The notes under the pieces are model-generated. The model was not told where the DNA came from and made no database searches. It was given only the letters and a program-made list of their open reading frames with translations. A stretch of 58,846 nucleotides of DNA from Parcubacteria group bacterium (GTDB lineage Bacteria; Patescibacteriota; Minisyncoccia; Moranbacterales; UBA11712), in NCBI GenBank assembly GCA_041659065.1, contig JBAZYY010000001.1, forward strand, positions 1 through 58,846, read 5' to 3'. Shown here piece after piece: positions 8,955 to 38,666 of this stretch; within the stretch, counting starts at the first letter, position 1, and every line of letters begins with the position of its first letter. Made by a program: the position numbers and the translations under genes.

Positions 8955-9070
8955 AAAATCCAAAAATCAAAGCTCAAATGACAAATAAAATCTAAAATCC
9001 CAATGTCAAAGTTTTGAATTTTGAGCTTTGAGTTTGATTTGATATTTGGATTTTGACATTTGGATTTCGA
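8955..9070. repeat. AT-rich imperfect palindrome of the same word family as the 23S insertion
   Basis: TCAAAGCTCAAA (left arm) pairs with TTTGAGCTTTGA (9020-9031). AAAATCCAAA-type words are mirrored by TTTGGATTTT-type words. Confidence 0.6.
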
Positions 9071-9074
9071 AAAA

Positions 9075-11947: not shown

Positions 11948-12226
11948 ATGTTTTTTGGACCAAATCCAGAATTAGAAATTAATATAAACATTGTTATCAT
12001 AGTCACACTGTTTGTCATATCCGTTATTTTATTCGCATTTTCTAAAAAATTCTTAGTTTCAGTGCTATTTTTTTCACTTCTCGAAAATATTGTTATGGTT
12101 TTTAATATGTATACTAGATCCTTTCTGTTTATAAACGCTAGCTTTTTATTAATATATTTTGTGCTTCTTCTTTGGCCCCTGTTTAATATTGCTTTAATTT
12201 ATAAATTAATAACACGCAGAAAATGA
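11948..12226 (+). CDS. Small hydrophobic membrane protein
   Basis: 92 aa with about 3 TM helices. Its stop overlaps the next start (ATGA), which suggests translational coupling. Confidence 0.6.
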   Translation: MFFGPNPELEININIVIIVTLFVISVILFAFSKKFLVSVLFFSLLENIVMVFNMYTRSFLFINASFLLIYFVLLLWPLFNIALIYKLITRRK

Positions 12227-15129
12227 AAAAAACAAAAAGAGTTTTCATCGGAATATTGATTTTTGCATTTGTCATAGCTCCGATTAAGCCAAGCGGGCTG
12301 ATAAATTATCTTTCCAGTAGGGCCATCGCGCAAGACAACGAGATAACGGAGGGTGAAACGTTTTGGAATGAAGACATCACTGTCACAGGTGATTTTTTTG
12401 TAGGTCCGGATGCGTTTCTCACGATAAAAAAAGGAGTAACTGTGACTCTTGATAACTCTAATTTTATAGTCGAAGGCGGACTTTTCGTTGAAGGTACGGT
12501 GAAAGATCCTGTGAAATTTAAGAAGGCTAATGAAAATAGTGTATATTTCCTCACAATAAGAGATGGTGCTTGGGCAGAATTTAAAAATTTTGACATAAGC
12601 GAAGCTGGCTATTTTGATGACGGTGGAATCCCCCCTGTTCAGGTTAGGAATTCAACTGTTAGCCGAGCTTATGCCGAGGAGCTGATTCCAGCAATTCAGA
12701 TTGACGAATCCTCTTTTCTTTGCGACGCTTGCGCTTTTCATTCCAATGCTGCCGGAATTTCTCTAAAAAATTTGAAATTCTATTCGGAAATTAAAGTAAA
12801 TCGCTCTAAATTTTTTGATAATGAAAAATACGATGTGAATTATGATAACAGCAAAGATTTATCTAGCTTGCTTGATTTTCAGCATAACTGGTGGGGGAGT
12901 AGGTCTGGTCCGGAAAAAACAGCTGGAAATATTAATACTTCAAATTTTACGGTCAAAGAAGATTTTCGTGACCCCGTTATTGTTATCCCTGGGATTATGG
13001 GTTCTTGGAAGGTCGGTGATAAATGGGAGCTAGATCCCATAACTCATTCATATGACAATTTAATTTTCGAGCTTGATAACGAGGGTTATACTCCAGGCTA
13101 TGATCTTTTTGAATTTCCGTACCAATGGCGAAACAGCAACGTAGAAAACGCTGAATATCTGGGAAATTATATAGACGCTATCGAAACCCAAAAAAGTTGG
13201 CCGAAAGTTGACATTGTGGCGCATTCAATGGGCGGACTTCTAGCGCGACAGTACATCGAATCCTTTGAAAATGAATATGAGATTGATGTTGACCAGCTAA
13301 TTACCCTTGGAACACCACATAACGGTTCCTTAGTTGCATATCTGATGCGGGAAGCAGGGGAGGGTTTTTCAGGTATTGATGGTTATGCAGCAAAAAAAAT
13401 ATTTACTCGTGAGGCTGAAAAGGCAAGCGAAGAGAATCTATTCTACTATATCCGTAATCGGCCGATGTCATCGGTCCAAGAATTATTACCTACAAATAAT
13501 TATCTGTTTAACTTGGATTCTAATTCGCCAAAAATATATCCAACTGGCTATCCGCGAAATGAATTTCTGGAAAAATTAAATAGCGAAGACGGGATGATAA
13601 AATTGAACATGGTCGAATTCGACAATATTTATGGAGAATATTCAGGAGAAAAAACTCTAGGAGGGTTTAAAACTATCAATGCGCCAGCTTTCGGCGATTA
13701 TTGGGAGCATGGCTATCCCAAAAATTACAATTTTCTTGGAAGCAAAGAAGGACTTGTCTATGTTGAAGGAGACGGAACTGTGCCGAAAGATTCGGCAATT
13801 TCCGTGCCGAGCGATGAAAGGAGGGGCGTCCCGTCTTCTCATAATAAATTACCAACCGAGGCTCAAAAAGATGTACTTGAATATTTGACAGGCATAAGGC
13901 CTGCTAACGAAATCAGGGATGCCGGAATGGATATACGAGAGATATTGCTGATTCAGGTTTATTGCCCTATTGATATTCAAGTGACCGATCCGAATGGAAA
14001 TATCAGTGGAACAAATTTTGCGAATGGATCTTCTATTAATAATATCGAGGGGGCCGCTTATATAAAAAATGGCGACAACGAAGAATTTATCACGATTCCA
14101 AATCCGGTTAAAGATGAGCAGTATATAATCAAAACCAAGGGGACGGGTGAGGGTGGAGACTATAAGATTGAAGTCGCGAAAATAACTGAGAATAATTCAA
14201 ATCCAGATCAAACCGAAGAACCGCCCGTGATAATCGAAGGAAATATTCAGTCCGGTGATTTTGACGAAACGGCGATAAAAATAGAAAATGATGAGATCTT
14301 AATTTCTGACCAGCCAGCGGACACCACGCCTCCCACCATTATCGGGTATGCGACAACTCAGCCGAATGCGAGTGGTTGGTATAATACCGATGTGGTTGTG
14401 CGGTTTGAGGCGGCGGACAGCGAATCGGGAATCGAGAGTGTGACGCCGGATGTTGTAATTTCCACGGAAGGAGCGAATCAATCTGTCACTGGCACGGCGA
14501 TTGATAAGGCGGGAAACAGCGCGACGTATGCGGTATCGGGCATAAATATCGATAAAGCTCCTCCCGCAATCTCAATTACTTCCCCGAAACCCATAAAATA
14601 TCAAAATAATCAAATTCTGCCGATAAATCTTCAAGTGGCGGACAATTTCAGCTCGCGGGATAAAATAGCAAGCGCTGCCGTCTATGACAAGGCGGATTTT
14701 CCAAAAAATAACATCGATCTGTCTCTTGAGCGTCTCGGGCCTCACAATCTAAAAATCACGGCCGGAGACGAAGCGGGAAATAATTCCGAGACAAAAGTTG
14801 ATTTTTTTGTCGTGACGAATCTTGACGCGATCAGGAGTAATGTTGCGCATTACTGGAATCTCAAATTAATCAAGAGGAAAGTTGAGAAAAGTTATCTTGA
14901 AATGCAGATAAAAATTCTCAAGGAGCAATTCGGAGTTTTGGAGCGGACAAAATCAATGCGAATAAACCCGAGAATCAAGGAATTATTCATCCAATCCCAA
15001 AAGCAACTGATTAATTTCAGAATCAAAGCGCTCGTCAATCAGCTGAGACATAATTCTCCGCGCTGGATCGAAGAAAAAGCAGCCGCAGCCTTGATAGAGA
15101 GTTTGAATTCGATAAGAATACTCCAATAG
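12223..15129 (+). CDS. Secreted multidomain lipase/esterase-like protein (beta-helix-like N-terminal region, alpha/beta-hydrolase, Ig-like C-terminal domains)
   Basis: Signal peptide. PGAP1/LCAT-like strings VIVIPGIMGSW and VAHSMGGLLARQY (GxSxG) followed by GTPHNGS. A C-terminal DTTPPT...GWYNTDVVV...DSESGI Ig-like module. Confidence 0.8.
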   Translation: MKKTKRVFIGILIFAFVIAPIKPSGLINYLSSRAIAQDNEITEGETFWNEDITVTGDFFVGPDAFLTIKKGVTVTLDNSNFIVEGGLFVEGTVKDPVKFKKANENSVYFLTIRDGAWAEFKNFDISEAGYFDDGGIPPVQVRNSTVSRAYAEELIPAIQIDESSFLCDACAFHSNAAGISLKNLKFYSEIKVNRSKFFDNEKYDVNYDNSKDLSSLLDFQHNWWGSRSGPEKTAGNINTSNFTVKEDFRDPVIVIPGIMGSWKVGDKWELDPITHSYDNLIFELDNEGYTPGYDLFEFPYQWRNSNVENAEYLGNYIDAIETQKSWPKVDIVAHSMGGLLARQYIESFENEYEIDVDQLITLGTPHNGSLVAYLMREAGEGFSGIDGYAAKKIFTREAEKASEENLFYYIRNRPMSSVQELLPTNNYLFNLDSNSPKIYPTGYPRNEFLEKLNSEDGMIKLNMVEFDNIYGEYSGEKTLGGFKTINAPAFGDYWEHGYPKNYNFLGSKEGLVYVEGDGTVPKDSAISVPSDERRGVPSSHNKLPTEAQKDVLEYLTGIRPANEIRDAGMDIREILLIQVYCPIDIQVTDPNGNISGTNFANGSSINNIEGAAYIKNGDNEEFITIPNPVKDEQYIIKTKGTGEGGDYKIEVAKITENNSNPDQTEEPPVIIEGNIQSGDFDETAIKIENDEILISDQPADTTPPTIIGYATTQPNASGWYNTDVVVRFEAADSESGIESVTPDVVISTEGANQSVTGTAIDKAGNSATYAVSGINIDKAPPAISITSPKPIKYQNNQILPINLQVADNFSSRDKIASAAVYDKADFPKNNIDLSLERLGPHNLKITAGDEAGNNSETKVDFFVVTNLDAIRSNVAHYWNLKLIKRKVEKSYLEMQIKILKEQFGVLERTKSMRINPRIKELFIQSQKQLINFRIKALVNQLRHNSPRWIEEKAAAALIESLNSIRILQ

Positions 15130-15144
15130 TAAAAAATGCACATA

Positions 15145-15168
15145 CTACCACGCTACCAATGATGGTAG
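15145..15168 (-). repeat. 24-nt motif, copy 3, inverted orientation (CTACCACGCTACCAATGATGGTAG)
   Basis: Its reverse complement matches copy 1 at 22/24 positions. It starts 16 nt after the lipase-like gene stop. Confidence 0.9.
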
Positions 15169-15319
15169 GATATGCATGTTTTAAAAAAGTAAAGAGGGCG
15201 GGAAGGGAGAAGCGCTGGTCTGGCTCAGAAGCACCAATTAAAGGAACGCTCCCTGCCTGGGGCAGGGAGCAAAGGGCCAAATATGGCAATTTTAAAATAT
15301 TGGCTAAAGATCTGGCGGT

Positions 15320-15580
15320 TTATGCCGGCGCTGCTTGGGCTTCTGAACCGCCTTGAGGCCGGTCTAGCAAGTAGTCATTCGCCAAGCGCAACGCCTCGCC
15401 TCTCGCGTGCATTTGGCATCCGACATCAGTGCAAGAATCCGGAACCTCAACGGGGAGCAACTTCTTCCCCGAATAAACTGCATACTGGACTTCCGGTACG
15501 CCGCCGCAGTCCTCTGAAATGCACTTTTCCTGCCGGGGTGTTATTTTTGTTGCCTCCACCTTGATGTTATCCGTTGTCAT
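15320..15580 (-). CDS. Hypothetical 86-aa Cys-containing protein in the GC-rich island
   Basis: A strong SD (AAGGAGG) ends 7 nt upstream of the ATG on the minus strand. Contains CISEDC ... CTDVGC. No family recognised. Confidence 0.55.
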   Translation of the reverse strand: MTTDNIKVEATKITPRQEKCISEDCGGVPEVQYAVYSGKKLLPVEVPDSCTDVGCQMHARGEALRLANDYLLDRPQGGSEAQAAPA

Positions 15581-15786
15581 ACACCTTCCTCCTTTATTCT
15601 TCCCATTTTTGGGAGATATGTCATTTTGTCATGAAATAAATCAAGGGTCAAGAGCGGAAAATATTTAGATTGCGGCTGCAATGCCTGTTTTTTCAGGCAA
15701 ACGGCATAAATATTCACAAGCTGTGTATTGAGTAGCAATGGGAAGTCTTGGCGCTTCTCAAAAATCTAAGTGGGAGGTGGCCAGTC

Positions 15787-16176
15787 ATGGCCGAGGCAAA
15801 CCGGGAAATAATGGAATTATTGGGAACCTTGGCCATCGCAATCGGGCCAATTGTGGACGAGGAAAACCTTAAGGTTGAATATTACAACGTCCAGGACTCC
15901 TCGCTCAAAAACGAGCCGTCATATTTTTTGGCCAGCAGGCGGAGCGCGGAGCCGACTCTGCCGCTGTTTTCTCCCGAGAATTATATTTTGCGTTTTCCGG
16001 ATCCGGCGCGGGAGGGAAGGCTACTGGCATCGAAATCGGTGCCGGTTCGGCTCATAAATATCCCAAAGTTAGCTTTTTGGGTAGAGGCCGCCCTCAAAGC
16101 TATGAAAGCTATCTATGCCAAGGAAGGCCTCATAGTCGACTTCAAGATCGAATATTTTGAGCCTCCAACATGCTAA
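15787..16176 (+). CDS. Hypothetical 129-aa protein in the GC-rich island
   Basis: A GGGAGG SD sits 9 nt before the ATG at 15787, which is preferred over the TTG at 15748. No family recognised. Confidence 0.55.
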   Translation: MAEANREIMELLGTLAIAIGPIVDEENLKVEYYNVQDSSLKNEPSYFLASRRSAEPTLPLFSPENYILRFPDPAREGRLLASKSVPVRLINIPKLAFWVEAALKAMKAIYAKEGLIVDFKIEYFEPPTC

Positions 16177-16202
16177 GTCAGGGCATCGGAGAGTCGAAAA
16201 AA

Positions 16203-16241
16203 GGGACGGACACAAGGCGCCATCTTGCATCCGCCCCTTTT
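16203..16241 (+). terminator. Candidate terminator after the 15787-16176 gene
   Basis: GGGACGGA ... TCCGCCCC stem followed by TTTT, with an A-run upstream. Confidence 0.5.
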
Positions 16242-16357
16242 AAATTTGCTGCTTCACGGAAAGATTGAAAAAATGCGCCAGTAGGGGTATAATTTGACTC
16301 ATGAGTCCGGTAGCGAAAATTTGAAAAACACTATGTTTTACGATAGGTCAATAGAAG

Positions 16358-16386
16358 TTGACTTTCTGAATAGTTTTAAGTATACT
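16358..16386 (+). promoter_or_regulatory. Near-consensus promoter of the AAA+ ATPase gene
   Basis: TTGACT (16358-16363), a 17-nt spacer, then TATACT (16381-16386), 36 nt before the ATG. Confidence 0.5.
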
Positions 16387-16421
16387 TAAAATATATCAAT
16401 AAATTATAAATAGTTTTAAGT

Positions 16422-17636
16422 ATGACTAAAATATATCAAAAACGCCCATATTATCTCGATAAAATCGCTCCTTTTATTGGAGTTGATCTTATTAAGGTGC
16501 TTGTCGGCCAAAGGCGCGTTGGCAAAAGCTATATTTTATTGCAGTTGATGGACGTGATAAAATCCAAGGACAAGAAGGCGAATATCGTTTATATCAACAA
16601 AGAAGAGAATGAATATGACGCGATTATTAATTATCGCGATTTAATTGTTTATGCTGAAAAGCGCGTTGTTGCTAAAGTTAATAACTATCTGTTCGTTGAT
16701 GAAATTCAGGATATCGAAAACTTTGAAAAAGCACTAAGGCATCTTTTCGCAAAAAAAACTTTTGATCTTTATTGCACCGGTAGCAACGCGCGACTCCTCT
16801 CCTCGGAAATTGCCACCGGCTTGTCCGGCCGCTATATCGAAATTTCCATACACCCCTTGTCGTATCGTGAATTTTTGCAATTTCAAAAATTGCCGTCTGG
16901 CGAAAAATCATTGATGAAGTATATCCGTTATGGAGGATTACCCTTTCTTGCCAATTTGGAACTCACTGATGAAATTGCATACGGTTATTTACAAAGCGTA
17001 TATAATACAATCATATTGAATGATGTGGTGGCGCGATTCAATATCAGAAACATCAATTTTCTTAATCGTCTCTTGGAATATTTGGCGGACAATATTGGAT
17101 CCCTGGTTTCTGCTAATCGGATTAGTGAATTTTTGAAATCACAAAAAATAAAAACTACGCCTAATATTGTTTTGGATTATTTGTCATTTTTAACTTCCAG
17201 TTTTATCATTCGCGAAGTCAACCGGGCGAATATCAAAGGAAAAAAGATCTTTGAAATCAATGAAAAATATTATTGGGAAGATCTGGGGCTAAGAAATTCA
17301 CTAGTTGGCTATAAAGCGATGGAGATCGGGCAGATTTTGGAAAATTTGGTTTTCTCGCACTTGTCGCGATTGGGATTTACAATTCATGTCGGCCAATTGG
17401 GAAATAAAGAAATTGATTTTGTCGCCGAGAAAGAAGGAAAAAAAATATATATCCAGGTGGCTTATTTAATAAATGACAATGTGACTAAAAATCGGGAATT
17501 TGGCAATTTGCTAGCTATATCGGATAATTATCAAAAGATCGTGGTTTCTATGGATAAAATGGTCGGTAGCGATTATCAAGGCATAAAACATTGGCAAATC
17601 GTTGATTTTTTGCTAAATGATAAGCTGTTGGATTAG
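16422..17636 (+). CDS. AAA+ ATPase (AAA_14 plus DUF4143-type)
   Basis: Walker A GQRRVGKS and Walker B LFVDEIQ. The overall layout is typical of the predicted-ATPase family with a C-terminal DUF4143 domain. Confidence 0.85.
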   Translation: MTKIYQKRPYYLDKIAPFIGVDLIKVLVGQRRVGKSYILLQLMDVIKSKDKKANIVYINKEENEYDAIINYRDLIVYAEKRVVAKVNNYLFVDEIQDIENFEKALRHLFAKKTFDLYCTGSNARLLSSEIATGLSGRYIEISIHPLSYREFLQFQKLPSGEKSLMKYIRYGGLPFLANLELTDEIAYGYLQSVYNTIILNDVVARFNIRNINFLNRLLEYLADNIGSLVSANRISEFLKSQKIKTTPNIVLDYLSFLTSSFIIREVNRANIKGKKIFEINEKYYWEDLGLRNSLVGYKAMEIGQILENLVFSHLSRLGFTIHVGQLGNKEIDFVAEKEGKKIYIQVAYLINDNVTKNREFGNLLAISDNYQKIVVSMDKMVGSDYQGIKHWQIVDFLLNDKLLD

Positions 17637-17689
17637 TTATGACTATTTATACGCTCAATGCCCAAATAGTTATATAATTGGACAAGTAT

Positions 17690-19066
17690 ATGCAAAACGA
17701 AACAGCCGCTAAATCCAAAAACACCAAGCCGGCGGAAACGGCCATTAGGGTTGAAAATCTCTCTAAAACCTTCAGGATTCCGCATGAGAAAATATCCACA
17801 TTGCGGGGGGCTTTTGTGAACCTGTTCCGGACTAACGGGTACGAAGAATTCAACGCGCTCGACAATGTTTCTTTCGAGGTCAAGAAGGGGGAATTTTTCG
17901 GGATCATCGGGCGGAACGGCAGCGGGAAATCAACGCTCCTCAAGATTCTCGCAGGCATTTATAAGCCCGGGAAAGGAAAGGTGAAAGTAAACGGGCTTAT
18001 CTCGCCGTTTCTCGAACTTGGCATCGGTTTCAACCCCGAACTTTCCGGGCGGGACAATATTTATCTCAACGCATCAGTCCTGGGCCTTTCCCAAAAACAA
18101 ATCAACGAAAAATTTGACGATATTGTGAATTTTTCCGAACTCCATCGCTTCATCGATCAAAAAGTCAAAAATTATTCATCAGGGATGCAGGTACGTCTGG
18201 CGTTTTCTGTTGCCATCCACGCGAACCGGGATATCCTTCTTATGGATGAGGTACTGGCAGTAGGAGACACAAACTTCCAGAGCAAATGCATGGATGAATT
18301 TCGGAATTACAGAAATGCCGGGAAAACCATTATTTTAGTTACGCATGATATTGAAACTGTCCGGCAATATTGCGATAGAGCCGTGCTTCTTCGCAGCGGT
18401 AAAATTGAGATGATAGGCGATTCGGATAAAGTGGGAGACAAATATATATATCAAAATATGTCAGATGAAGAAAAGCGACTCCTGGAAGAGGAAAAAAGAC
18501 AGAGAATTAAAGCTGAAAAAGAAGCTGCACGACTGATTCGAGAGCAAAAAATCGCTGAACAACGACAGCAAACGGAAGAAGAAAAAAAACAAGCAGAGGA
18601 GGAAAAAAAGCAAGAGATAGAAAAAATAAAGCAAGAAGAAAAAGAAAAAAACAAGCCGGTTAAAATTATAAAAATAGAGTTTTTAAACTCAGAGGGTATT
18701 CCAGTAAATGCCATAAAGACGCATGATAAGTTAGAAATAAAAATTTATTTCGATGCCGCGAATACCTTTCAAAAAGAGGTGAATATAGGGGTCTCGATAG
18801 AAAATAGAGAAGGCCAGTATCTTTTTGGATACAATACGCTGATGGATAATTATTCGCCTCAAATAAATAAAGGATACATCTCTATTGTCTATCCAGAAGT
18901 GCTTCTGCTCTCAGGCAATTATTTTATTAACGTTACGATTGCAAAAAAAGACGATGGATCGACCTTGGATTATCAGCCAAGGACTAGGAATTTTAGAGTA
19001 TTCTCCATTGGCAAAGAGAATTCGTATAAAGGAACCTTCAGTCTAAAGCATAAATGGAACCAGTAA
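17690..19066 (+). CDS. Polysaccharide/teichoic-acid export ABC ATPase (Wzt/TagH-like) with a charged helical linker and a C-terminal Wzt_C-like beta domain
   Basis: Walker A GRNGSGKST, signature YSSGMQVRL and Walker B LLMDEVLAVGD. A K/E-rich segment is followed by a beta-rich domain of about 130 aa. The ATG at 17690 is preferred over the TTG at 17678. Confidence 0.9.
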   Translation: MQNETAAKSKNTKPAETAIRVENLSKTFRIPHEKISTLRGAFVNLFRTNGYEEFNALDNVSFEVKKGEFFGIIGRNGSGKSTLLKILAGIYKPGKGKVKVNGLISPFLELGIGFNPELSGRDNIYLNASVLGLSQKQINEKFDDIVNFSELHRFIDQKVKNYSSGMQVRLAFSVAIHANRDILLMDEVLAVGDTNFQSKCMDEFRNYRNAGKTIILVTHDIETVRQYCDRAVLLRSGKIEMIGDSDKVGDKYIYQNMSDEEKRLLEEEKRQRIKAEKEAARLIREQKIAEQRQQTEEEKKQAEEEKKQEIEKIKQEEKEKNKPVKIIKIEFLNSEGIPVNAIKTHDKLEIKIYFDAANTFQKEVNIGVSIENREGQYLFGYNTLMDNYSPQINKGYISIVYPEVLLLSGNYFINVTIAKKDDGSTLDYQPRTRNFRVFSIGKENSYKGTFSLKHKWNQ

Positions 19067-19075
19067 ATAGCGCAT

Positions 19076-19669
19076 ATGAACTTGGCAAATCCAAAAAAAC
19101 ATATACCCTGGATTGTTTACGAAGCCAAAGATTGGCTGGATGAATTTTTAAAAAAGGATATGAGGGTATTTGAATGGGGATCAGGAGGCTCGACATTTTA
19201 TTTTAGCAAGAGGACAAAAAAAGTTGTGTCGGTTGAACATGATGATTCCTGGCATAAGAAAGTCGAGGAGACTTTGCTTAAAGAAAAAATAAACAATTGT
19301 GAATATCACTTGATAGCGCCTTATAAAAATTATCTGTCAAGAATCTTGCCGCTGGCTTGGAGAATGTATAAATCTGAAGTGTTCACGGAGTATAAAAATT
19401 ACACATTCAAAAAATATGTTAAAAAGATTAGTGATTACCCCGACAACTTCTTTGATCTAATTTTCGTGGATGGAAGGGCGAGAGCCGCTTGTATGCGGCA
19501 TGCCGTGAGAAAGATAAAGAAGGGCGGTTTTCTGATGCTGGACAATTCAGAGAGAAAATCATACAGAAATGCAATGGGGAAGTTAAGGAATTTTCAGCGG
19601 AGGGATTTTTTTGGGCACGGTCCTTATTCAGAAGATAAATGGCAAACTTCCGTGTGGCATATTAATTAA
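19076..19669 (+). CDS. Class I SAM-dependent methyltransferase-like protein
   Basis: FEWGSGGSTFYF (motif I-like), then FDLIFVDG and GGFLMLDN. Confidence 0.65.
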   Translation: MNLANPKKHIPWIVYEAKDWLDEFLKKDMRVFEWGSGGSTFYFSKRTKKVVSVEHDDSWHKKVEETLLKEKINNCEYHLIAPYKNYLSRILPLAWRMYKSEVFTEYKNYTFKKYVKKISDYPDNFFDLIFVDGRARAACMRHAVRKIKKGGFLMLDNSERKSYRNAMGKLRNFQRRDFFGHGPYSEDKWQTSVWHIN

Positions 19670-19694: not shown

Positions 19695-20504
19695 ATGGAA
19701 GAACTAAAACTCCTACGCTATAAGAATCCGGACTTTAAGATGTACATAGAACCTGTATTTGAAATAGCTTATGATCCAGAAAGATTTGAATTGGCGACAA
19801 GGAAAATTTTCTCAAACCTAATAAAACCAGAGAGTAACTTTGTTGATGTTGGGGCTCATTTCGGTTTTTATTCACTTCTGGTATCCAAAATAATATCAAG
19901 TGGGAATATCTTTTCCTTCGAGCCAGTTGAAAGAAGCGTCGATATTTTCAAGAGAAATATCGTTCTTAACGGTTTTAAAGGGATAAAGATATTTAACTTT
20001 GCAATCTCAGACAAAAAAGGAAAAAAAGATTTTTATATCTCCGCGTTATCCGATTCATGTGGTTTTACCCAGCATCCGCGAGCGGGTTCGATAAGAAAAA
20101 TTAAGATAGAAACGAATTCTCTTGATAATGTAATTGGTGATGAGAAAATTGACGTTGTGAAAATTGATACAGAAGGTCATGAGGTTGGGGTTATTCTCGG
20201 AATGAAAAAAATAATAGCAAATAATCCAAAAATAAAAATAATACTTGAATTTAATCCAAAATGCATAAGAAGTGCGGGAATAAAAATTTCACAATTTGCT
20301 GAAGTGCTCAAGGCTGCCAATCTTGAAATACATATGATTAAAGATTCAGGACCCTTTTTAATAAACCTCACTGAAAATTTTAACAAATGGGAAGATTATT
20401 TGGATGAGATATCATACGCAAACTTACTCTGCCTTAAAAAGGAAGAGAGAGACAGATTAATTAAGAAGAGCGAATTTTTTGGAAATATTTTTAAGGGAAA
20501 TTAA
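19695..20504 (+). CDS. FkbM family methyltransferase
   Basis: VDVGAHFGFYS ... FSFEP ... VKIDTEGHE pattern typical of Methyltransf_21/FkbM. Confidence 0.85.
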   Translation: MEELKLLRYKNPDFKMYIEPVFEIAYDPERFELATRKIFSNLIKPESNFVDVGAHFGFYSLLVSKIISSGNIFSFEPVERSVDIFKRNIVLNGFKGIKIFNFAISDKKGKKDFYISALSDSCGFTQHPRAGSIRKIKIETNSLDNVIGDEKIDVVKIDTEGHEVGVILGMKKIIANNPKIKIILEFNPKCIRSAGIKISQFAEVLKAANLEIHMIKDSGPFLINLTENFNKWEDYLDEISYANLLCLKKEERDRLIKKSEFFGNIFKGN

Positions 20505-20703: not shown

Positions 20704-21630
20704 ATGAATAAAAGAAATGAAAAAATTGGTAAATTCTGGTCAGCAGTTAGTAAGCAATCGGAGAGCAATGATTTAAAGTTAAGATGGTGGCAAAGTCCTC
20801 TTATAATTAGGCATGTCAATAAGCTAGTGGAGGGTGAATATTCGGACGGTCTCTCTCAGGGGCTTGTGAATAAAATTAAAAAAAATTACGGACATCTAAT
20901 TCCGTTTAAAAAAGGAATATCTGTGGGTTGTGGAAATGGGCAAAAGGAAATTAATCTAATAAAGCAAGGAATTGTCGAAGAATTTGATTTATTTGAATTA
21001 AGTCAGACGCGAGTTAATCAAGGCAATGCATTAATTAAGAAAAATTCGCTTGCTAACCAGATGCGATATATTAAAGGTAACGCTTTTGAGATTATTACTA
21101 AACCAGAACAATATGATATTGTCCATTGGAATAACTCTCTGCACCATATGTTGAATGTTTTTGATTCTGTAAAGTGGAGTAGGGATATACTAAAGAAGGG
21201 GGGACTTTTCTATATGGATGATTTTATAGGGTCTTCTCGTTTTCAGTGGTCGGATAAGCAATTGGAAATTGCCTCTAGGGTTCGGAACGTCTTTTGTGAG
21301 AGCAAATATGTAAGAGACCCTGACAAAAATTCCTCCTCAGGAGAACTAAATATCAATCTCAGCAGACCAGATATAGAAGCTATGATTAGTGGTGATCCTT
21401 CGGAAGCGGCCGATTCGGAGAGAATAATTGATGCCGTAGGGAGGTACTTTCACGATGTGAAAATTATAAAAACCGGAGGGGTAATTTATCACCTAGCGTT
21501 ATCTGATATGATAAATAATTTTGACGAAGTAGAAGATAGGCTTATACTTGATCTATTGATGCTCGTTGATGAGTTATGTATAGATCTGAATGAAACTCAC
21601 TACGCCACAGCGATAGCCATTAAGAACTAA
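20704..21630 (+). CDS. Class I SAM-dependent methyltransferase
   Basis: ISVGCGNGQKE glycine-rich motif, plus IVHWNNSLHHM and LKKGGLFYMDD. Confidence 0.78.
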   Translation: MNKRNEKIGKFWSAVSKQSESNDLKLRWWQSPLIIRHVNKLVEGEYSDGLSQGLVNKIKKNYGHLIPFKKGISVGCGNGQKEINLIKQGIVEEFDLFELSQTRVNQGNALIKKNSLANQMRYIKGNAFEIITKPEQYDIVHWNNSLHHMLNVFDSVKWSRDILKKGGLFYMDDFIGSSRFQWSDKQLEIASRVRNVFCESKYVRDPDKNSSSGELNINLSRPDIEAMISGDPSEAADSERIIDAVGRYFHDVKIIKTGGVIYHLALSDMINNFDEVEDRLILDLLMLVDELCIDLNETHYATAIAIKN

Positions 21631-21634
21631 TAAT

Positions 21635-22675
21635 ATGCAAGACTCACGAAAAACCTCAGTTGTTATAACCTGTCACAATTACGGAAAATTTTTGAAAGAG
21701 GCAATTGACTCAGCGCTAAATCAATCAGTCAAACCAAAAGAAGTAATAGTTGTGAATGACGCAAGCGCAGATGATTCGGAAAAAATCGCGAAAAGCTATA
21801 GGGATAAGATAAAGTATTTTCAAGTCGAGTTTAAAAATGCACAGAAGGCTAGGAACCTTGGGCTACAAAAAAGTTCCGGAGAGTTCGTTGTTTTTCTTGA
21901 TGCAGATGACTATTTCGACAATAATTTTCTAAAATATACTCAAGTGGAATTAGAGGGAGACAAAGAATTAGATCTGGTATACACCGATAGATCACATATT
22001 GGGGAAAAGAAATTCCTGGAAGATTTAGGATTTAAGTCATGCTGGAAAACGGAAGAATTCGACTATGATAAATTGACTCAATATAATTATATCTCTCTCC
22101 CGTCGCTAATACGAAAGAAAAAATTTAAAGGATTCGATGAGGAAATTAAAAGATTCCAAGACTGGGATGCATGGCTAACGCTATTAAAAAACGGCGAGGC
22201 AAAAAGAATTGCGGAATCATTATTTACCGTTAGGTTTCACGGGGAAAATAAAACCTTTACGGTTGATAGCATCCTTGAAAGGATAAAGGTGCTGGCAAAA
22301 CATAAGCTTTATGATATTTTAGCTAATGATTATAGGAAAGTTGTCTTGGAATTAGGTGATTTGCGCAAAACTATCCAGCAGAAAGATCAGGAAATCCAGC
22401 AAAAAGACCAAGAGCTTCAGCAGAAAGATCAGGAAATCCAGCAAAAAGACCAAGAGCTTCAGCAGAAAGATCAGGAAATCCAGCAAAAAGACCAAGAGCT
22501 TCAGCAGAAAGATCAGGAAATCCAGCAGGAAAGAAATGTTATCGCAGTAAGAGAAAGTATTATTCGACAAAAAAACGCCGAAATAAAAATGATGAAATCT
22601 TCGAGATTTTGGAAAATGAGAGAAGTATACTATCGAATAAACAGCAAGATAGCACGGAAAAAGAAGCATGGATAA
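21635..22675 (+). CDS. GT2 glycosyltransferase with a C-terminal repeat-built coiled coil
   Basis: SVVITCHNYGKFL ... VNDASADDS ... FLDADD (DxD). The C-terminus has (QQKDQEIQQKDQEL)n followed by an SSRFWKMR motif. Confidence 0.88.
   Translation: MQDSRKTSVVITCHNYGKFLKEAIDSALNQSVKPKEVIVVNDASADDSEKIAKSYRDKIKYFQVEFKNAQKARNLGLQKSSGEFVVFLDADDYFDNNFLKYTQVELEGDKELDLVYTDRSHIGEKKFLEDLGFKSCWKTEEFDYDKLTQYNYISLPSLIRKKKFKGFDEEIKRFQDWDAWLTLLKNGEAKRIAESLFTVRFHGENKTFTVDSILERIKVLAKHKLYDILANDYRKVVLELGDLRKTIQQKDQEIQQKDQELQQKDQEIQQKDQELQQKDQEIQQKDQELQQKDQEIQQERNVIAVRESIIRQKNAEIKMMKSSRFWKMREVYYRINSKIARKKKHG
22376..22527 (+). repeat. Perfect 42-bp tandem repeat, about 3.6 copies, in frame within the GT2 gene
   Basis: The unit CAGCAGAAAGATCAGGAAATCCAGCAAAAAGACCAAGAGCTT occurs at 22376-22417, 22418-22459 and 22460-22501, plus 26 nt of a fourth copy. 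Confidence 0.95.
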
Positions 22676-23858
22676 AACGACTGGAAAAATACTATTCGTA
22701 AGTCATGACGCTTCCAGGACTGGGGCGCCTTTTGTCCTCTTGCATTTATTAAAGTGGCTAAAGGAAAACACTGAAGTTGAGTTTGAAGTTTTGTTAAAAA
22801 ATGGCGGAGAGCTAGAGAGTGAGTTTGAAGCTCTTGCTCCAACTTACATATGGTATAAGCCTGGCAATCCGAAGAATTTATTTGAAAAAATATTGCTCTA
22901 CTATAATCTATCAAGCTTATCTCCAAATAGTCACAAAGATAAATTATCAAGGTTGTTTTTGCAAAAAAAATTCAACGTAATTTTTACAAATTCAGTGGCG
23001 AGCTGTGATGCTATTAATGAATTGAAACAGAGATTGGATATTCCAATAATATGTTATTTGCATGAGTTGGAAATAAGCATCCGCCAATTTTGCGGGCTAG
23101 ATGTATTTAAAGAAGCTCAAAAAAATATAGATCTCTATATTGGGAGCTCCAAGATGGTTGTAGATAATCTTAAGATAAATCATGGATTAAGTGATAAAAA
23201 AATTGATCTCGTCTACGATTATATTCCCGCGAAGGAATATCATGAAGCAAGAAACGAATATGATACGCAAGAATTGAGAATGAAAATTGGCGTTCCCGAT
23301 GGTTCCTTTGTCGTTGGGTCATGCGGGACTATTGACTGGCGAAAAGGAGTTGATTTGATACCTCAAATATCCAGGCTAGTGAGACAGAAATCGGATCTTC
23401 CTATATACTTCGTTTGGATTGGGGGAGTTCAGTCAGGCGTGGACTTCGAAAAATTTTTACAAGATGTTGATAAGCTAAATTTGAAGGACAAGGTAATTTT
23501 TATTGACTACGCACTTGACTATTTTGCGGCTATAGATGTTTTCCTGTTGCCCTCAAGGGAAGACCCCTTCCCGCTTGTTTGCTTGCAAGCTGCAGCATTC
23601 GAAAAGCCGGTTATTTGTTTTGAACTTTCCGGAGGCATTCCTGACTTCGTGGAAAAAGATTGTGGTTTCGTGGTTCCTTATCTTGATATAGAAGCGGCAG
23701 CAGAAAAGATTATCGAACTGGCGCAGAATCGGGAGCTATGCAGTAGACTAGGAAAAAACGCTGCTCAGAAAGCAATGAAAAGGCACGATGTGTCAATTGC
23801 TGGAAGGCAGATTATGGATATAATTAAAAAAGTTTTGGCAAAAAGTAGGGTAGTCTAA
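22668..23858 (+). CDS. GT4 (group 1) glycosyltransferase
   Basis: GT-B pattern with a C-terminal EDPFPLVCLQAAAFEKPVI (E-x7-E). It overlaps the previous gene by 8 nt. Confidence 0.87.
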   Translation: MDKTTGKILFVSHDASRTGAPFVLLHLLKWLKENTEVEFEVLLKNGGELESEFEALAPTYIWYKPGNPKNLFEKILLYYNLSSLSPNSHKDKLSRLFLQKKFNVIFTNSVASCDAINELKQRLDIPIICYLHELEISIRQFCGLDVFKEAQKNIDLYIGSSKMVVDNLKINHGLSDKKIDLVYDYIPAKEYHEARNEYDTQELRMKIGVPDGSFVVGSCGTIDWRKGVDLIPQISRLVRQKSDLPIYFVWIGGVQSGVDFEKFLQDVDKLNLKDKVIFIDYALDYFAAIDVFLLPSREDPFPLVCLQAAAFEKPVICFELSGGIPDFVEKDCGFVVPYLDIEAAAEKIIELAQNRELCSRLGKNAAQKAMKRHDVSIAGRQIMDIIKKVLAKSRVV

Positions 23859-23862
23859 TTTA

Positions 23863-24777
23863 ATGGTAAAAAAGGCAGAAATATCAATTATATTCCTGAC
23901 ATTCGACGGAATCACCGATTATTTCAAAGAAACGCTTAAAAGTGTCTTGTCCCAATCCACGAAGCGTAGCTACGAAATAATTACTATAGACTCTGGTTCC
24001 ACTGATGGCACAGTCGAATTTGTGAAGCGCTATGGGAATGTTAGGCTTTATGAAATACCTAACTCTGAATTCAGCCACAGCCGCACGCGGCAGATGGGAG
24101 CTGAATTGGCAAATGGCGATTATCTCGTTTTTTTGACGCAGGATGCTACGCCGGCGGGAAATCAATGGCTGGATAACCTGGTAAGGAATTTCAATGATCC
24201 TGAAGTGGTCGGAGTATGCGGTCGGATTATTCCAAGAAAAGACGCCTTTGTGTTAAGAAAAATAAATGTAGAGAATGACTTGTCAGGCAGAATAAAACGA
24301 ATTGAAGCGCAAATTGAGGATAAGGAGAAATTTGAAAAATTAAGTTATCTGGAAAAAAGGCTTCATTACTATTTTTTTTATAATATATCTTCTGCAGTCA
24401 GGAAGAATTTTATTTTGGAAAATCCGTTTCCTGATGTTCCCTTCGCTGAGGATTTAGAATTTGCAAGAGTAGCCCTGGCCAAAGGGAAAAAAATTGTGTA
24501 TGAGCCTGATTCTGTTGTATATCATTCACATAATTATTCATTGAAAAAAACCTATCAAAGGAACTTGATTGATGCTCGATATCACAAAGTTTATTTAAAC
24601 ATTCGTAATGTCCCAACACTATTTCAGCTTTGGAAAAATGTCAGAGAATATGTCAGTCGGGACTGGATATCCCTTGCAAGCTATGATTTATCGAAGTTTG
24701 ATAAAACTATCGCTATGCTGTATAGTCCAATAATTCACTTCGCTGAACAATTGGGGCAATATAGAGGAGGAAAATAA
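23863..24777 (+). CDS. GT2 glycosyltransferase
   Basis: ISIIFLTFDG ... ITIDSGSTDGT ... TQDA pattern. Confidence 0.83.
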   Translation: MVKKAEISIIFLTFDGITDYFKETLKSVLSQSTKRSYEIITIDSGSTDGTVEFVKRYGNVRLYEIPNSEFSHSRTRQMGAELANGDYLVFLTQDATPAGNQWLDNLVRNFNDPEVVGVCGRIIPRKDAFVLRKINVENDLSGRIKRIEAQIEDKEKFEKLSYLEKRLHYYFFYNISSAVRKNFILENPFPDVPFAEDLEFARVALAKGKKIVYEPDSVVYHSHNYSLKKTYQRNLIDARYHKVYLNIRNVPTLFQLWKNVREYVSRDWISLASYDLSKFDKTIAMLYSPIIHFAEQLGQYRGGK

Positions 24778-24813: not shown

Positions 24814-25773
24814 ATGACAAAGAAAAAAGACAGCATTTTGATACTTGGCGCGGACGGGTTTTTAGGCAGTAATCTTGCCTTGTCGCTCGCGAAAGAGGAA
24901 AGATTCAACCTGAGGGCGTTTGATCTATTTAAAAACGGATTATCAAATAACCTGGAATCAATTCGGAACGACATAAAATTAATTCAGGGGAATTTTTTAA
25001 ACAAGGAGGATTTAAAAACATCTCTTAATGGTATTGATTATGTTTTTCATTTTATATCCCTTACGACTCCGAGCTCTTCATCTGACGATCCCTTCATAGA
25101 AATCGATACGAATATCCGTAGCACTTTAGAATTATTGGATGAGTGCGTGAAAGCTGGAATAAAAAGAATAATTTTTGCTTCAACTGGCGGAGCGATCTAC
25201 GGAGACCAAGCAAAAAGTATTTATTCGGAAAGAGATGTTACGAATCCCATCTCACCTTATGCGATCTCAAAGTTGGCGATAGAAAAATATTTAGAGTACT
25301 ACAGGATACGCCATGGGTTATCTTATTTAATACTTCGTTATTCGAATCCCTATGGTCCACACCAAAACTTAGTCGGAAGCCAGGGCATAATTCCGATCTT
25401 TTTAAATCAAATATTTGAAGGTCGTCCTGTTACGATTTTTGGGGACGGAGAGAATATTAGGGACTATATTTTTGTTGATGATATTATTGATATTACAAAA
25501 AAAATATTCAAGAAAAAAACAGAGCACAATCTGTATAATATAGGGAATGGAAAAGGAATAACGATAAATATGCTTTTGGATGCAATGAGGGATATTACCG
25601 GCAAGAAGATAAAAATAAAATGGCAGCCAAAACGTGAAATTGACATCAGGAAAATTGTTCTCGATACGAAAAGGATCAAAATGGAGATGGGAGATTTTAA
25701 ATTAACATCGCTGGGTGAAGGGATTAAAAAAACATGGGAGTGGATCTCGCAACAAAAATCTCTTAAAAGATAA
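24814..25773 (+). CDS. NAD-dependent sugar epimerase/dehydratase (extended SDR)
   Basis: GADGFLGSNL Rossmann motif and a YAISK catalytic YxxxK. Confidence 0.87.
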   Translation: MTKKKDSILILGADGFLGSNLALSLAKEERFNLRAFDLFKNGLSNNLESIRNDIKLIQGNFLNKEDLKTSLNGIDYVFHFISLTTPSSSSDDPFIEIDTNIRSTLELLDECVKAGIKRIIFASTGGAIYGDQAKSIYSERDVTNPISPYAISKLAIEKYLEYYRIRHGLSYLILRYSNPYGPHQNLVGSQGIIPIFLNQIFEGRPVTIFGDGENIRDYIFVDDIIDITKKIFKKKTEHNLYNIGNGKGITINMLLDAMRDITGKKIKIKWQPKREIDIRKIVLDTKRIKMEMGDFKLTSLGEGIKKTWEWISQQKSLKR

Positions 25774-25834: not shown

Positions 25835-28465
25835 ATGATTGTTTGCACTTCAGTTTGCTCAAATTACATACCAAAAGCTAAGGTGTTGGCTAAATCCTTA
25901 AAGATGACGAATCCTAAGGTAAAATTCGTCGTCTGTCTCGCGGAGCGCAAGATTCCTGATTTTGCTAAGGATTTTGAATTTTTTGATGAGGTCGTACTCG
26001 CTAAGGATCTTGGTTTTGAAAATTTTGACAAATATATTTTTAAGCATTCAATCGTTGAGGCCTCCACTTCAGTTAAAGGCCAACTCTTCAAATACTTGTT
26101 TAAAAAATACGAAACCGAAAGTAAATTTGTATATCTTGATCCGGACATAGAGGTGTTTAGTGAATTAAGAGAGCTGGATACCTTACTTAATGAAAAATCT
26201 ATCGTTTTAATTCCTCATATTACTGCGCCGGAAGACAGTATTGAAGCGGTGATTGACAATGAGTTATGCGCGTTGAGGCACGGCACTTATAATCTTGGAT
26301 TTCTTGCCGTTCGAAATGACACAGAGGGTAATAAATTTATAAATTGGTGGACAGATAGACTTCGTATGTTTTGCTACGATAATATTCCAATGGGCATTTT
26401 CACCGATCAGCGTTGGGTTGATCTGGCTCCAAGTTTTTTTGATGTGTTTGTTCTCAAACATCCTGGTTATGACATTGCACCTTGGAATATTTCACATAGA
26501 AAGATTACAGAGACGAATGAAGATATATATTTAGTAAATGGAGAACCGCTAAGATTTTTTCACTTTTCAGGTTTCGACTCTGGCGCGAATGAGGCGATGG
26601 TGAAAAAGTATGTTCCAAACAAGAAAGATCCAATCTATAAGATTAGAAAAGAATATATTGCAGAGTTGGACATGGCGGGCCAGGTTGAATATGGGAAGTA
26701 TCCATGGGATTACGCTTATTTTACAAGTGGGGAAAAAATTTCCGATAAAATTCGGTTGATATACAGATCAGACGAAAAACTTCAAGAAAAAATTAATTTT
26801 CCCTTCAATGTTTCAAGCGGGGTAATTACGTCTTTCTCTGAGAATATTGATTCCAGCGGCGTATATTCAGCGATTTCAAGTAACTTTGAAGATGAGAACT
26901 TAAGGGAACATTTGGGTAGGCTGGAGCGCGAAATACAATATTTTAAAAACTCTAAGTTTTGGAAGGCAAGGAATATCTATCTGAAATTGAAATTTGTTGT
27001 GCTTTCACCGCGCAAATTTATAAAAAAATATTACTCCAAAGCAAAATATCTTTTTTTCTCATACCACTCCTTTTTTAAACAAGAAGGCTTTATAAAAGCC
27101 AATCATAGACTTTCAAATTATGTTAGGCATGGCAAAGGATTTCTTGAAAAAACCACGGGCATGGACAATATATATTCCAATAAATCTCTCTCTGAGGCTG
27201 TTGGGTATTTAAATATTGTTTTAAGGAAAAATAGCCATTTTGGTGAAGCTCTGAAAGTAGCATCTGAAAAAAATGAAGAATATGACGATTCTATTGAAAA
27301 ACAAATTTCTTCCGATTCATCGAGAAAGATACGGGATTTATTGCGAATGATTATTTCTGCAAATGGCGCCAAAAAAGGCCACCCGATACTTTTTTTCGAC
27401 CATGAAATTGGAGGCGGCACAAATTTGTTTCGTGAAAATTTTATTAAGGAAAATATTTCTTTGGGTAAAAAAATTATTCTTGCCACTTATAATATGTCAG
27501 AAGGAATATATCACCTGAGATATTGCGAGGATCGGGCAGTTTTTGAATTTGTGTTCAACGACTTAAGCGAATTGAGGGATTTATTAAAGTTGATAAAGAT
27601 CGACAGAATAGTTTTGAGCAGTATAGTGTCGTTTCCAGATCCTTTTCAGCTATTAAAACTAGCTAATGAGATGAAAGAAGTTTCAGAAATTAACCTGGAA
27701 ATCTTGATGCATGACTATTTTTGCGTTTGTCCCAATTTTGTACTAGTGAATCAGGATGACAAATTTTGTGGGTTGCCTGATTTAAAAGAATGCGCGACGT
27801 GCATAAAAGATAATCAAGGCGACTTCAGATTATTTACAAAAGAAAGGGATGTAAAGTCATGGCGACAACATTGGCAAAAAACACTGAAATTGGCGAATCA
27901 AGTAATTTGTTTTTCAAATTCTTCAAAAAGCATATTGAAAAGTGCCTATCCAGAATTAAATGATAACAATATAAAAGTCAGGCCGCACAAAGTCGAGTAT
28001 ATCGAAACACTTCAAAAGAAGAAAGGGATCAACAAAAAAAATATTATTATCGGGGTTCCTGGCAGAATAAGCCATGTAAAGGGAGCGAGTGTAATTCAGG
28101 AAGTGCTCAAAATAATCGAAAGAGAAAAACTAAATATAATAATCGTGATTATCGGTGAGTATAGTAGCCCCTTTGAAAGCAAAAATTTAATAGTTCATGG
28201 AGCTTACGAGCGCAAAAGATTACCAAAGCTAGCGCAAAGATACGAAGTTGATATTTTTTTCATTCCTTCAATCTGTCCGGAGACTTTTTCATATACCACT
28301 GAGGAGATCATGCAAATGGATTACCCATTGGCTGTTTTTGACCTTGGCGCTCCAGCCGAAAGGGTAAAATCATACAAAAAGGGAGTGATCATTCCCCGCA
28401 TAGATGCGAGAGAGGCGTTAGAATCAATAATTAGGATAAGTAAAGACAAATCGCAATGGGAGTAA
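25835..28465 (+). CDS. Large multidomain glycosyltransferase (GT-A-like N-terminal domain, coiled-coil/spacer, GT-B C-terminal domain)
   Basis: 876 aa. YLDPDIEVF (DxD) in the N-terminal domain, a central LEREIQYFKNSKFWKARN motif and a C-terminal GT4-like region. Confidence 0.78.
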   Translation: MIVCTSVCSNYIPKAKVLAKSLKMTNPKVKFVVCLAERKIPDFAKDFEFFDEVVLAKDLGFENFDKYIFKHSIVEASTSVKGQLFKYLFKKYETESKFVYLDPDIEVFSELRELDTLLNEKSIVLIPHITAPEDSIEAVIDNELCALRHGTYNLGFLAVRNDTEGNKFINWWTDRLRMFCYDNIPMGIFTDQRWVDLAPSFFDVFVLKHPGYDIAPWNISHRKITETNEDIYLVNGEPLRFFHFSGFDSGANEAMVKKYVPNKKDPIYKIRKEYIAELDMAGQVEYGKYPWDYAYFTSGEKISDKIRLIYRSDEKLQEKINFPFNVSSGVITSFSENIDSSGVYSAISSNFEDENLREHLGRLEREIQYFKNSKFWKARNIYLKLKFVVLSPRKFIKKYYSKAKYLFFSYHSFFKQEGFIKANHRLSNYVRHGKGFLEKTTGMDNIYSNKSLSEAVGYLNIVLRKNSHFGEALKVASEKNEEYDDSIEKQISSDSSRKIRDLLRMIISANGAKKGHPILFFDHEIGGGTNLFRENFIKENISLGKKIILATYNMSEGIYHLRYCEDRAVFEFVFNDLSELRDLLKLIKIDRIVLSSIVSFPDPFQLLKLANEMKEVSEINLEILMHDYFCVCPNFVLVNQDDKFCGLPDLKECATCIKDNQGDFRLFTKERDVKSWRQHWQKTLKLANQVICFSNSSKSILKSAYPELNDNNIKVRPHKVEYIETLQKKKGINKKNIIIGVPGRISHVKGASVIQEVLKIIEREKLNIIIVIIGEYSSPFESKNLIVHGAYERKRLPKLAQRYEVDIFFIPSICPETFSYTTEEIMQMDYPLAVFDLGAPAERVKSYKKGVIIPRIDAREALESIIRISKDKSQWE

Positions 28466-35040: not shown

Positions 35041-35072
35041 ACATTCTTCCAAGAATAATTAGTTACAAAAAT

Positions 35073-36035: not shown

Positions 36036-36038
36036 TTT

Positions 36039-37784: not shown

Positions 37785-37789
37785 TTTAT

Positions 37790-38659: not shown

Positions 38660-38666
38660 TATTATC

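Follow-up and report, generated by a model that had tools for sequence, protein, structure and literature searches.

We analysed a 58,846-nucleotide stretch of DNA from a Parcubacteria group bacterium (contig JBAZYY010000001.1 of assembly GCA_041659065.1, positions 1 to 58,846 of the forward strand; hereafter, the window) and found that a perfect 42-bp tandem repeat forms, in frame, part of the predicted helical stalk of a family 2 glycosyltransferase (GT2). The GT2 gene (positions 21635-22675, plus strand), which was recognised from the list of open reading frames (ORFs), the Pfam family PF00535, an AlphaFold2 (AF2) model and Foldseek, encodes a protein of 346 amino acids in which a catalytic head is followed by the stalk and by a basic/aromatic C-terminal motif, referred to below as the FWK tail. 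By analogy with glycan-measuring enzymes of other bacteria, we propose that the stalk may act as a spacer or ruler that can be tuned in length by steps of 42 bp, the most likely task of the GT2 being to add a cap residue, which neighbouring methyltransferases would finish. Our confidence in this proposal is evenly divided between acceptance and doubt.

A perfect tandem repeat in the stalk of a GT2 enzyme

At positions 22376-22527 of the plus strand, Tandem Repeats Finder (TRF) reported an array with a period of 42, 3.6 copies (3.62), 100% matches, 0 indels and a score of 304, and direct reading gave three full 42-bp units plus 26 nt, all of them perfect. This array was by far the strongest in the window, the next-best unrelated TRF row scoring only 63, and the probability that an unbroken run of 110 period-42 matches arises by chance somewhere in the window was approximately 1e-56. 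The array lies in frame inside the GT2 ORF, where it encodes amino acids 248-298 as the peptide (QQKDQEI QQKDQEL)n, with two heptads per 42-bp unit, and is bordered by the unique flanks …AAAACTATC and GGAAAGAAATG…. A further 48 residues, including the conserved SSRFWKMR motif, follow before the C-terminus of the protein. The sequence-only reading of this DNA, made earlier from the letters and their translations, had described a perfect, frame-preserving repeat of three units plus 26 nt with a heptad-compatible 14-residue product, and both descriptions were borne out by TRF, direct reading and the register analysis given below; its placement of the array at the C-terminus of the GT2 holds in the sense that the array lies within the C-terminal stalk, and fails for the very end of the protein, which is formed by the 48 residues just mentioned. 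Two further ORFs of the region, at 22356-22550 (plus strand) and 22352-22669 (minus strand), were rejected as genes and regarded as by-products of the periodic sequence.

TRF also detected an older single-heptad periodicity of 21 bp (22373-22534, plus strand; 7.7 copies, 73% identity). The 42-bp unit consists of two diverged 21-bp heptad halves that are identical at 15/21 nt, and the differences between them comprise four synonymous changes and a replacement of ATC by CTT (I to L). Because the halves differ almost only at synonymous sites, the heptad peptide is under purifying selection. As judged from these comparisons, the 42-bp unit goes back to an early duplication of a 21-bp heptad unit, whereas its perfect copies evidently stem from a later, recent in-frame expansion that took place after the silent sites had drifted.

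The Pfam model PF00535 (Glycos_transf_2) matched amino acids 8-164 of the GT2 (E = 1.9e-27; 96.7 bits against a cutoff of 23.3), and Foldseek related the predicted structure, with a probability of 1.00, to GT-A enzymes such as K4CP, TarP/TarS, SpsA and WrtF. The residues D89, D91 and D92 (LDADD) were invariant in the closest orthologues, and across 32 relatives D91 was invariant and D92 nearly so. By its sequence matches and its predicted structure, the window protein is a bona fide GT2 with a GT-A fold. The AF2 model, which was built as a monomer with 32 aligned sequences and had a predicted local distance difference test (pLDDT) value of 93.7, consisted of the head (amino acids 1-222; 21635-22300, plus strand; also supported by Pfam, Foldseek and PDB searches), a single continuous alpha-helix from amino acid 226 to 322 (97 residues, ~14.5 nm; 22310-22600, plus strand), a kink at residue 323 and a last helix at 324-345.

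Over the repeat part of the long helix the pLDDT was 95-98. Register analysis divided the helix into 14 heptads in a single unbroken register that runs through both the unique flanks and the repeats, with YYLIILILILIIII at the a-positions and, at the d-positions, L, V and L, then K seven times, and then E, R, K and M. In the first three heptads, both a and d are hydrophobic, as in a canonical core, and the orthologue heptads IQQKEQE and IEEKNKE retain the I-x-x-K pattern of the repeats. The unbroken register together with the canonical first heptads favours a coiled coil over a charged helix of random sequence. In the model, each 14-residue unit would add ~2.1 nm, which gives a predicted stalk of 14.5 nm for the window allele and of 10.3 nm for a 318-amino-acid allele described below; the extended segment and the step of about 2 nm per unit that had been expected from the sequence are therefore both reproduced by the prediction.

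Stalk length in orthologues and copy number in metagenomes

We compared the stalk among orthologues and found that its length, counted from RFH to FWK, was 52, 66, 73, 76, 87, 94 and 122 residues in seven proteins. Orthologue stalks thus range from none (P0014, P0018, P0019 and P0020) up to the length found in the window. In addition, an orthologous GT2 with 62% identity, encoded at locus L088, contains an independent perfect array of 21 bp x 3.7 (positions 2387-2464 of that locus), which encodes (QKEQEIQ)n at the same stalk position as the window array, and a decayed 21/42-bp array is present at positions 5062-5182 of locus L082. The lengths of the orthologues and the independent array of L088 indicate that stalk length evolves by repeat gain and loss. 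As a separate observation, a minus-strand gene beside the orthologous locus L085 contains a 168-bp x 2.8 tandem repeat (4643-5109, 84% identity), and its product gave weak or faint matches to fn3, FG-GAP_3 and DUF6802.

The exact sequence of the array locus was found in two public groundwater-metagenome runs, X1 and X2, as Logan contigs with k=31, and we used the k-mer depths of these runs to estimate the copy number. In run X1, the flanks of the array had depths of 25.8 and 26.3. For the repeat itself, the depth was 79.5 over the 38 k-mers that should occur three times in each genome and 60 over the 4 k-mers that should occur twice. A read-sampling simulation for this run rejected one or two full periods and was fitted by three, four being not firmly excluded. 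Since the depths match three full periods, the copy number seen in the window is no assembly artefact. Run X2, with a depth of ~5, was compatible with two, three or four periods and indicates the presence of alleles with at least two; its assignment to a 2.6-unit allele was dropped when the simulation showed that the run is too shallow to tell two periods from three or four.

The protein cluster at the level of 90% identity contained only two members, namely the 346-amino-acid protein of the window and the 318-amino-acid protein P0001. The contig encoding the latter (ENA ERZ27249449; a short-read MEGAHIT assembly of 2056 bp) has 1.6 units, compared with 3.6 in the window, and both of its array flanks are 100% identical to those of the window. 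This array could be a genuine shorter allele, although its possible origin in assembly is taken up below. Neither the genome of the window nor further near-identical strains were among the matches listed when genome and metagenome contigs were scanned with the GT2 alignment. The gain and loss of units considered in the sequence-only reading is supported for orthologues, by their varying stalks and the independent 21-bp array, and is less certain at close range, where the single contig with identical flanks may be a collapsed assembly.

The FWK tail module and the glycan export locus

The FWK tail (22598-22672, plus strand; SSRFWKMREVYY...) was delimited by alignment and by the AF2 model, in which it is a predicted helix that follows the kink at residue 323. 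Its pattern is SS(K/R)FWK(L/M)R, represented by SSRFWKMR in the window and by (S/T)SKFWKLR in relatives, with S, F, W, K and R invariant across the relatives and a net charge of +4 to +5. A profile of the tail only, searched against a set of 5.8 billion proteins, retrieved just fragments of at most 98 amino acids, which were used as seeds for an exhaustive profile search. The profile of coil plus tail then found, at E<=1e-3, 1003 clusters (at the 50% identity level) in a set of 1.84 billion representatives. Its matches lay for the most part at the very C-terminus and in some cases inside the protein, and the clusters were spread over the candidate phyla radiation (CPR), cyanobacteria and other groups. 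The 78 longer FWK carriers included 20 GT2, 17 GT4/GT1, approximately 14 class I S-adenosylmethionine (SAM) methyltransferases, 5 Methyltransf_24, 4 FkbM and 2 sulfotransferases.

Perfect heptad arrays were present directly upstream of the motif in ~19 of 186 FWK carriers, the window array being the longest. Together with the arrays of the orthologues, this result shows that stalks of this module have recurrently changed in length through repeats. No Pfam model matched the FWK motif, no solved structure with the tail motif was found in the PDB, and a full-text literature search for 'FWKLR' returned nothing relevant. On these profile matches, the coil-plus-FWK module is widespread and uncharacterised, and its 1003 clusters, in combination with the lack of a Pfam model, a PDB structure or a literature match, recommend it for a first description of its structure and biochemistry. 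A second, internal copy of the module occurs in an 876-amino-acid two-module glycosyltransferase of the window (GT8...GT4 according to Pfam; 25835-28465, plus strand), where a short coil and NSKFWKARNIYLKLKF are located at amino acid ~373 (window 26951-27000). In the window and in the loci L087 and L088 alike, a short-coil FWK carrier is accompanied by a second carrier with a long coil, which fits the idea of enzymes positioned at different heights on a common anchor.

The window protein DnaE shared 74-78% identity with proteins whose names refer to Candidatus Moranbacteria/Moraniibacteriota or to Parcubacteria, and the named closest homologues of the GT2, among the matches listed, belonged to CPR lineages. 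The host is, according to these identities, a Moranbacteria-like CPR/Patescibacteria bacterium from groundwater, and the glycan product is therefore not a lipopolysaccharide (LPS) O-antigen. Upstream of the GT2 gene, the window encodes a Wzt-type ABC ATPase (17678-19066, plus strand; PF00005 ABC_tran) with a C-terminal Wzt_C carbohydrate-binding module (CBM), the latter supported by a match of PF14524 to amino acids 322-448 above the cutoff (E = 1.1e-18); the nearest NCBIfam models were teichoic-acid and galactan exporters, below their cutoffs. The Wzm-type ABC-2 permease (8171-8950, plus strand; Pfam ABC2_membrane, PF01061) lies 8.7 kb upstream of wzt, and its NCBIfam matches were galactan Wzm and KpsM, both below cutoff. 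Three methyltransferase genes, all on the plus strand, separate wzt from the GT2 gene: a small Methyltransf_24-like gene (19076-19669; Pfam), an FkbM/RfbT-like gene (19695-20504; Pfam and NCBIfam) and a class I SAM methyltransferase gene (20704-21630; Pfam). The stop codon of the GT2 gene overlaps the start of the downstream GT4 gene (22668-23858), which is followed by a second GT2 gene (23863-24777) and by an epimerase gene (24814-25773). As predicted from its gene content, the locus encodes a glycan pathway that depends on an ABC transporter and belongs to the type where the Wzt CBM reads a cap at the chain end, and the export context surmised by the sequence-only reading is thereby upheld through Wzt with its Wzt_C domain, Wzm and the three methyltransferases.

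This gene arrangement is conserved beyond the window. The order of wzt (with Wzt_C), Methyltransf_24 and GT2-stalk genes is kept in the loci L082/L083 and L084; L082, L083 and L084 each have a Methyltransf_24-type gene directly before the GT2-stalk gene; and in L087, a contig without wzt, the place before that gene is still taken by a faint match to Methyltransf_24. A small P-loop kinase gene adjoins wzt in L084 and L085. Moreover, the orthologue P0005 has an N-terminally fused methyltransferase and can be written as FkbM/RfbT-like methyltransferase::GT2::stalk::FWK, so that in this protein the GT2 head is physically linked to a terminal-modification enzyme. The conserved synteny and the fusion tie the GT2 head, if indirectly, to chain-end chemistry.

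In the Wzt protein, an E/K-rich linker of ~62-67 amino acids (amino acids ~263-324; nt ~18464-18649) joins the ATPase and the CBM. The linker was predicted to be helical (H263-324) in a single-sequence AF2 model that was otherwise poor (pLDDT 45.5), and TRF reported an imperfect 21/18-bp repeat in the Wzt gene at 18581-18656. At four loci, the lengths of the Wzt linker and the GT2 spacer followed the same rank order (67/122, 38/87, 33/76 and 25/52 amino acids). Look-ups of P0004 and P0015 gave no further loci with both Wzt and a GT2-stalk gene, and the co-variation, with n=4, is anecdotal. To judge from these lengths, the module that reads the cap may stand at a height corresponding to that of the enzyme that would add it.

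Several other features of the window were observed. The 8.7-kb interval between wzm and wzt, which looks like an insertion into the transporter operon, contains genes for a PMT_2 GT-C protein (9060-10937), a TrpR-like protein (11063-11593), a 968-amino-acid LCAT/lipase-like protein (12223-15129) and an AAA_14/DUF4143 ATPase (16422-17636), as well as an ORF-poor region with G+C above its surroundings (15130-16400), where the search for tRNAs and for Rfam families at their gathering thresholds found none. At positions 34255-39971, genes for a nucleotidyltransferase, a 4,6-dehydratase-like enzyme, a thiamine pyrophosphate (TPP)-dependent enzyme, an epimerase/reductase and a DegT aminotransferase form a sugar-nucleotide block, and from this composition the glycan may be expected to contain an uncommon sugar of the amino or branched deoxy type. 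Amid the glycan genes, the region 42588-44004 holds a toxin gene for an AbiEii-type nucleotidyltransferase (43171-44004), which is preceded by an ORF of 206 amino acids. The window begins with the 3' end of a 23S rRNA gene (1-631), which corresponds to model positions 2426-2925 and is ~130 nt longer than the model, suggesting that this end contains an insertion; a 5S rRNA gene follows at 910-1016.

The stalk as a candidate ruler and its relation to known systems

Two experimentally studied systems provide the analogy on which the proposed function is based. In WbdD of E. coli O9a, a trimeric coiled coil holds the catalytic domains ~20 nm away from the membrane, and the modal chain length rises when the coil is extended by insertions and falls when it is truncated; anchoring of the protein and recruitment of the polymerase are functions of the C-terminal region (PMC5082667, PMC3482155). 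A 2024 study described the extended coil as a 'characteristic marker' of terminators, with the terminator always at the distal end, and K. pneumoniae O4 ORF7 as a stand-alone terminating glycosyltransferase with a C-terminal coil (PMC11231755). The coiled coils of WbdD and WbbB, which had been invoked in the sequence-only reading, are indeed documented rulers (PMC11231755, PMC5082667). In H. pylori, the fucosyltransferases FutA/FutB have a variable number of C-terminal DD/NLRV/INY heptad repeats, which differs between strains, changes during infection and correlates with the size of the glycan acted on (PMC4205683, PMC5358919, bioRxiv 10.64898/2026.03.06.710112). These heptads of the alpha-1,3/4-fucosyltransferases FutA/FutB, and those of the GT25 beta-1,3-GalT, are reported to be the 'enzymatic ruler' of Nilsson et al. 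2006.

By this analogy, the three parts of the window protein, that is, the GT-A head, the 14-heptad helical stalk and the FWK tail, could cooperate as follows. The tail would anchor the protein at the membrane or at an export/polymerase complex, and the stalk would set the distance between head and anchor, which would amount to ~14.5 nm for the allele of the window and to 10.3 nm for that of 318 amino acids, so that only lipid-linked chains grown to about the length of the stalk would reach the head. The head would then most likely attach a residue that begins a cap, which the methyltransferases encoded nearby would finish and which would be recognised by the Wzt CBM. If slippage or unequal recombination added or removed 42-bp units, the stalk would change in steps of 2.1 nm, and the size class of the glycan would change with it. 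We infer that the stalk would adopt an oligomeric coiled-coil state, that copy number would vary within populations in an ongoing manner and, from the known rulers, that the stalk would have an effect on glycan chain length.

Several observations weigh against this proposal. The heptads of the repeat have one hydrophobic position only (a = I/L, d = K), which makes a single stable helix possible for the stalk, and the monomer AF2 model cannot tell a coiled coil from such a helix. Close orthologues (~50% identity) occur without a stalk, which indicates that catalysis needs none, and the three methyltransferases of the window, a type of enzyme that usually serves as the terminator, are separate, stalk-less proteins. 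The FWK tail was considered as an amphipathic membrane helix and rejected in this role, its hydrophobic moment of 0.34-0.49 being no better than that of shuffles; it is therefore better called a putative specific basic/aromatic binding motif, for which the membrane, a lipid carrier, the transporter or a partner enzyme are candidate ligands. The k-mer depth of run X1 gave no sign of a mixed-allele population and fitted a uniform three-unit allele, so that the check for heterogeneity proposed in the sequence-only reading turned out negative in X1, while X2 was too shallow for it. Finally, the 1.6-unit array of P0001 may be an assembler collapse, because 1.6 units correspond to the minimal traversal of a de Bruijn loop, and the shortness of the contig suggests low coverage.

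The strongest alternative, which we consider rather unlikely and yet deserving of weight, is that the stalk is passive: the helix would oligomerise and tether the enzyme, its length would have no read-out, and the expansions would be near-neutral low-complexity drift. The occurrence of the same catalytic head with anything from no stalk to 14 heptads, the polar heptads with their single hydrophobic position and the one dominant allele in X1 all agree with this explanation. However, drift of this kind would not readily account for the conservation of the heptad peptide while synonymous sites diverge, for a register unbroken over 14 heptads, or for the recurrence of the module on capping-type enzymes (methyl- and sulfotransferases) as well as on glycosyltransferases; moreover, in both experimentally studied analogues, WbdD and FutA/FutB, length matters.

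A second alternative, which we regard as improbable, is a ruler of the H. pylori type in a decorating enzyme, where the GT2 would add a side or terminal sugar to a given size class and the repeats would alter the class that is decorated, not the chain length. The shared architecture of a catalytic domain, heptads built from DNA repeats and a basic tail speaks for such a role, as do the many other glycosyltransferases of the locus that could polymerise the chain; in contrast, the tight conserved linkage to Wzt with its CBM and to methyltransferases, and the methyltransferase::GT2 fusion, indicate chain-end chemistry. To a similarly small degree, we entertain a broader version of the proposed ruler, in which the coil and FWK tail would be an undescribed anchoring module (~1000 clusters), the stalk an evolvable length dial, and the Wzt linker its matched counterpart in a two-stalk measuring device. 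If this were true, heptad DNA repeats would retune the size of surface glycans without switching genes off.

It is very unlikely that the stalk serves for docking to another helix of the machinery, such as the Wzt linker or the short coil of the 876-amino-acid glycosyltransferase, its repeat number being constrained to match the partner: the shared rank order of linker and spacer lengths and the predicted helicity of the linker would fit such pairing, but the former comes from four loci only and the latter from a model of low confidence. Mis-assembly of a 3.6-copy array that is absent from the organism can hardly be credited, because, although short-read assemblers are apt to make errors in tandem repeats and a version with 1.6 units is on record, the independent k=31 re-assembly of X1 gave depths of 79.5 and 60 over the array against 26 in its flanks.

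To our knowledge, the envelope glycans of CPR/Patescibacteria are essentially unstudied; they probably mediate epibiotic contact with hosts. If stalk length sets glycan size in the manner proposed, the ruler principle of the WbdD type would extend to GT2 enzymes and to CPR/Patescibacteria. The locus would also join the engineered WbdD ruler experiments with the natural repeat variation of FutA/FutB in H. pylori, and tandem heptads before an SSKFWKLR tail would serve as a simple marker in metagenomes for length-tuned glycan enzymes.

We further compared the window protein with the known systems. Sequence, profile and fold searches of the PDB revealed no similarity to WbdD, WbbB or FucT (GT10), and retrieved generic GT-A enzymes only. 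In its architecture, the protein resembles WbdD of E. coli O9a and K. pneumoniae O3, with a head, an extended helix and a C-terminal region that is anchoring in WbdD and putatively so in the window. The two also share, by prediction for the window, an ABC-transporter-dependent pathway with a Wzt CBM that reads the chain cap, and kinase and methyltransferase genes, i.e. capping chemistry of the WbdD type, neighbour the orthologous GT2-stalk genes. On the other hand, the head in the window is a GT2 and not a kinase/methyltransferase, the methyltransferases being separate proteins; the stalk is ~14.5 nm long compared with ~20 nm; and it is built from perfect DNA repeats, of which the sources consulted make no mention for WbdD. 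Like ORF7 of K. pneumoniae O4, the window protein is predicted to be a stand-alone glycosyltransferase with a C-terminal coil, although ORF7 and WbbB belong to another glycosyltransferase family with another donor, and a repeat-built coil is not described for either. With the functional class comprising WbdD, WbbB, K. pneumoniae O4 ORF7 and K. pneumoniae O7 ORF6, the window shares Wzm/Wzt and the Wzt CBM.

The likeness to FutA/FutB lies in the combination of a catalytic domain, tandem heptads from in-frame DNA repeats and a basic C-terminal tail. Unlike FutA/FutB, the window protein has a GT-A/GT2 catalytic fold, and its unit of 42 bp encodes two polar heptads (IQQKDQE), whereas the heptads of H. 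pylori are leucine-zipper-like; its locus encodes Wzm and Wzt with a CBM, and its host is an uncultured groundwater CPR bacterium. The repeat number of FutA/FutB differs between strains and changes during infection, whereas for the window we found a uniform fit with n=3 in X1 and one contig with 1.6 units, possibly collapsed. An adjustable heptad-repeat ruler in a glycosyltransferase is thus already published for H. pylori. The window protein combines the context and geometry of WbdD and ORF7 with a repeat-built stalk of the FutA/FutB type, and what is new here is the GT2 example, its Wzm/Wzt-CBM context, the CPR host, the perfect two-heptad unit and the wide distribution of the coil-FWK module.

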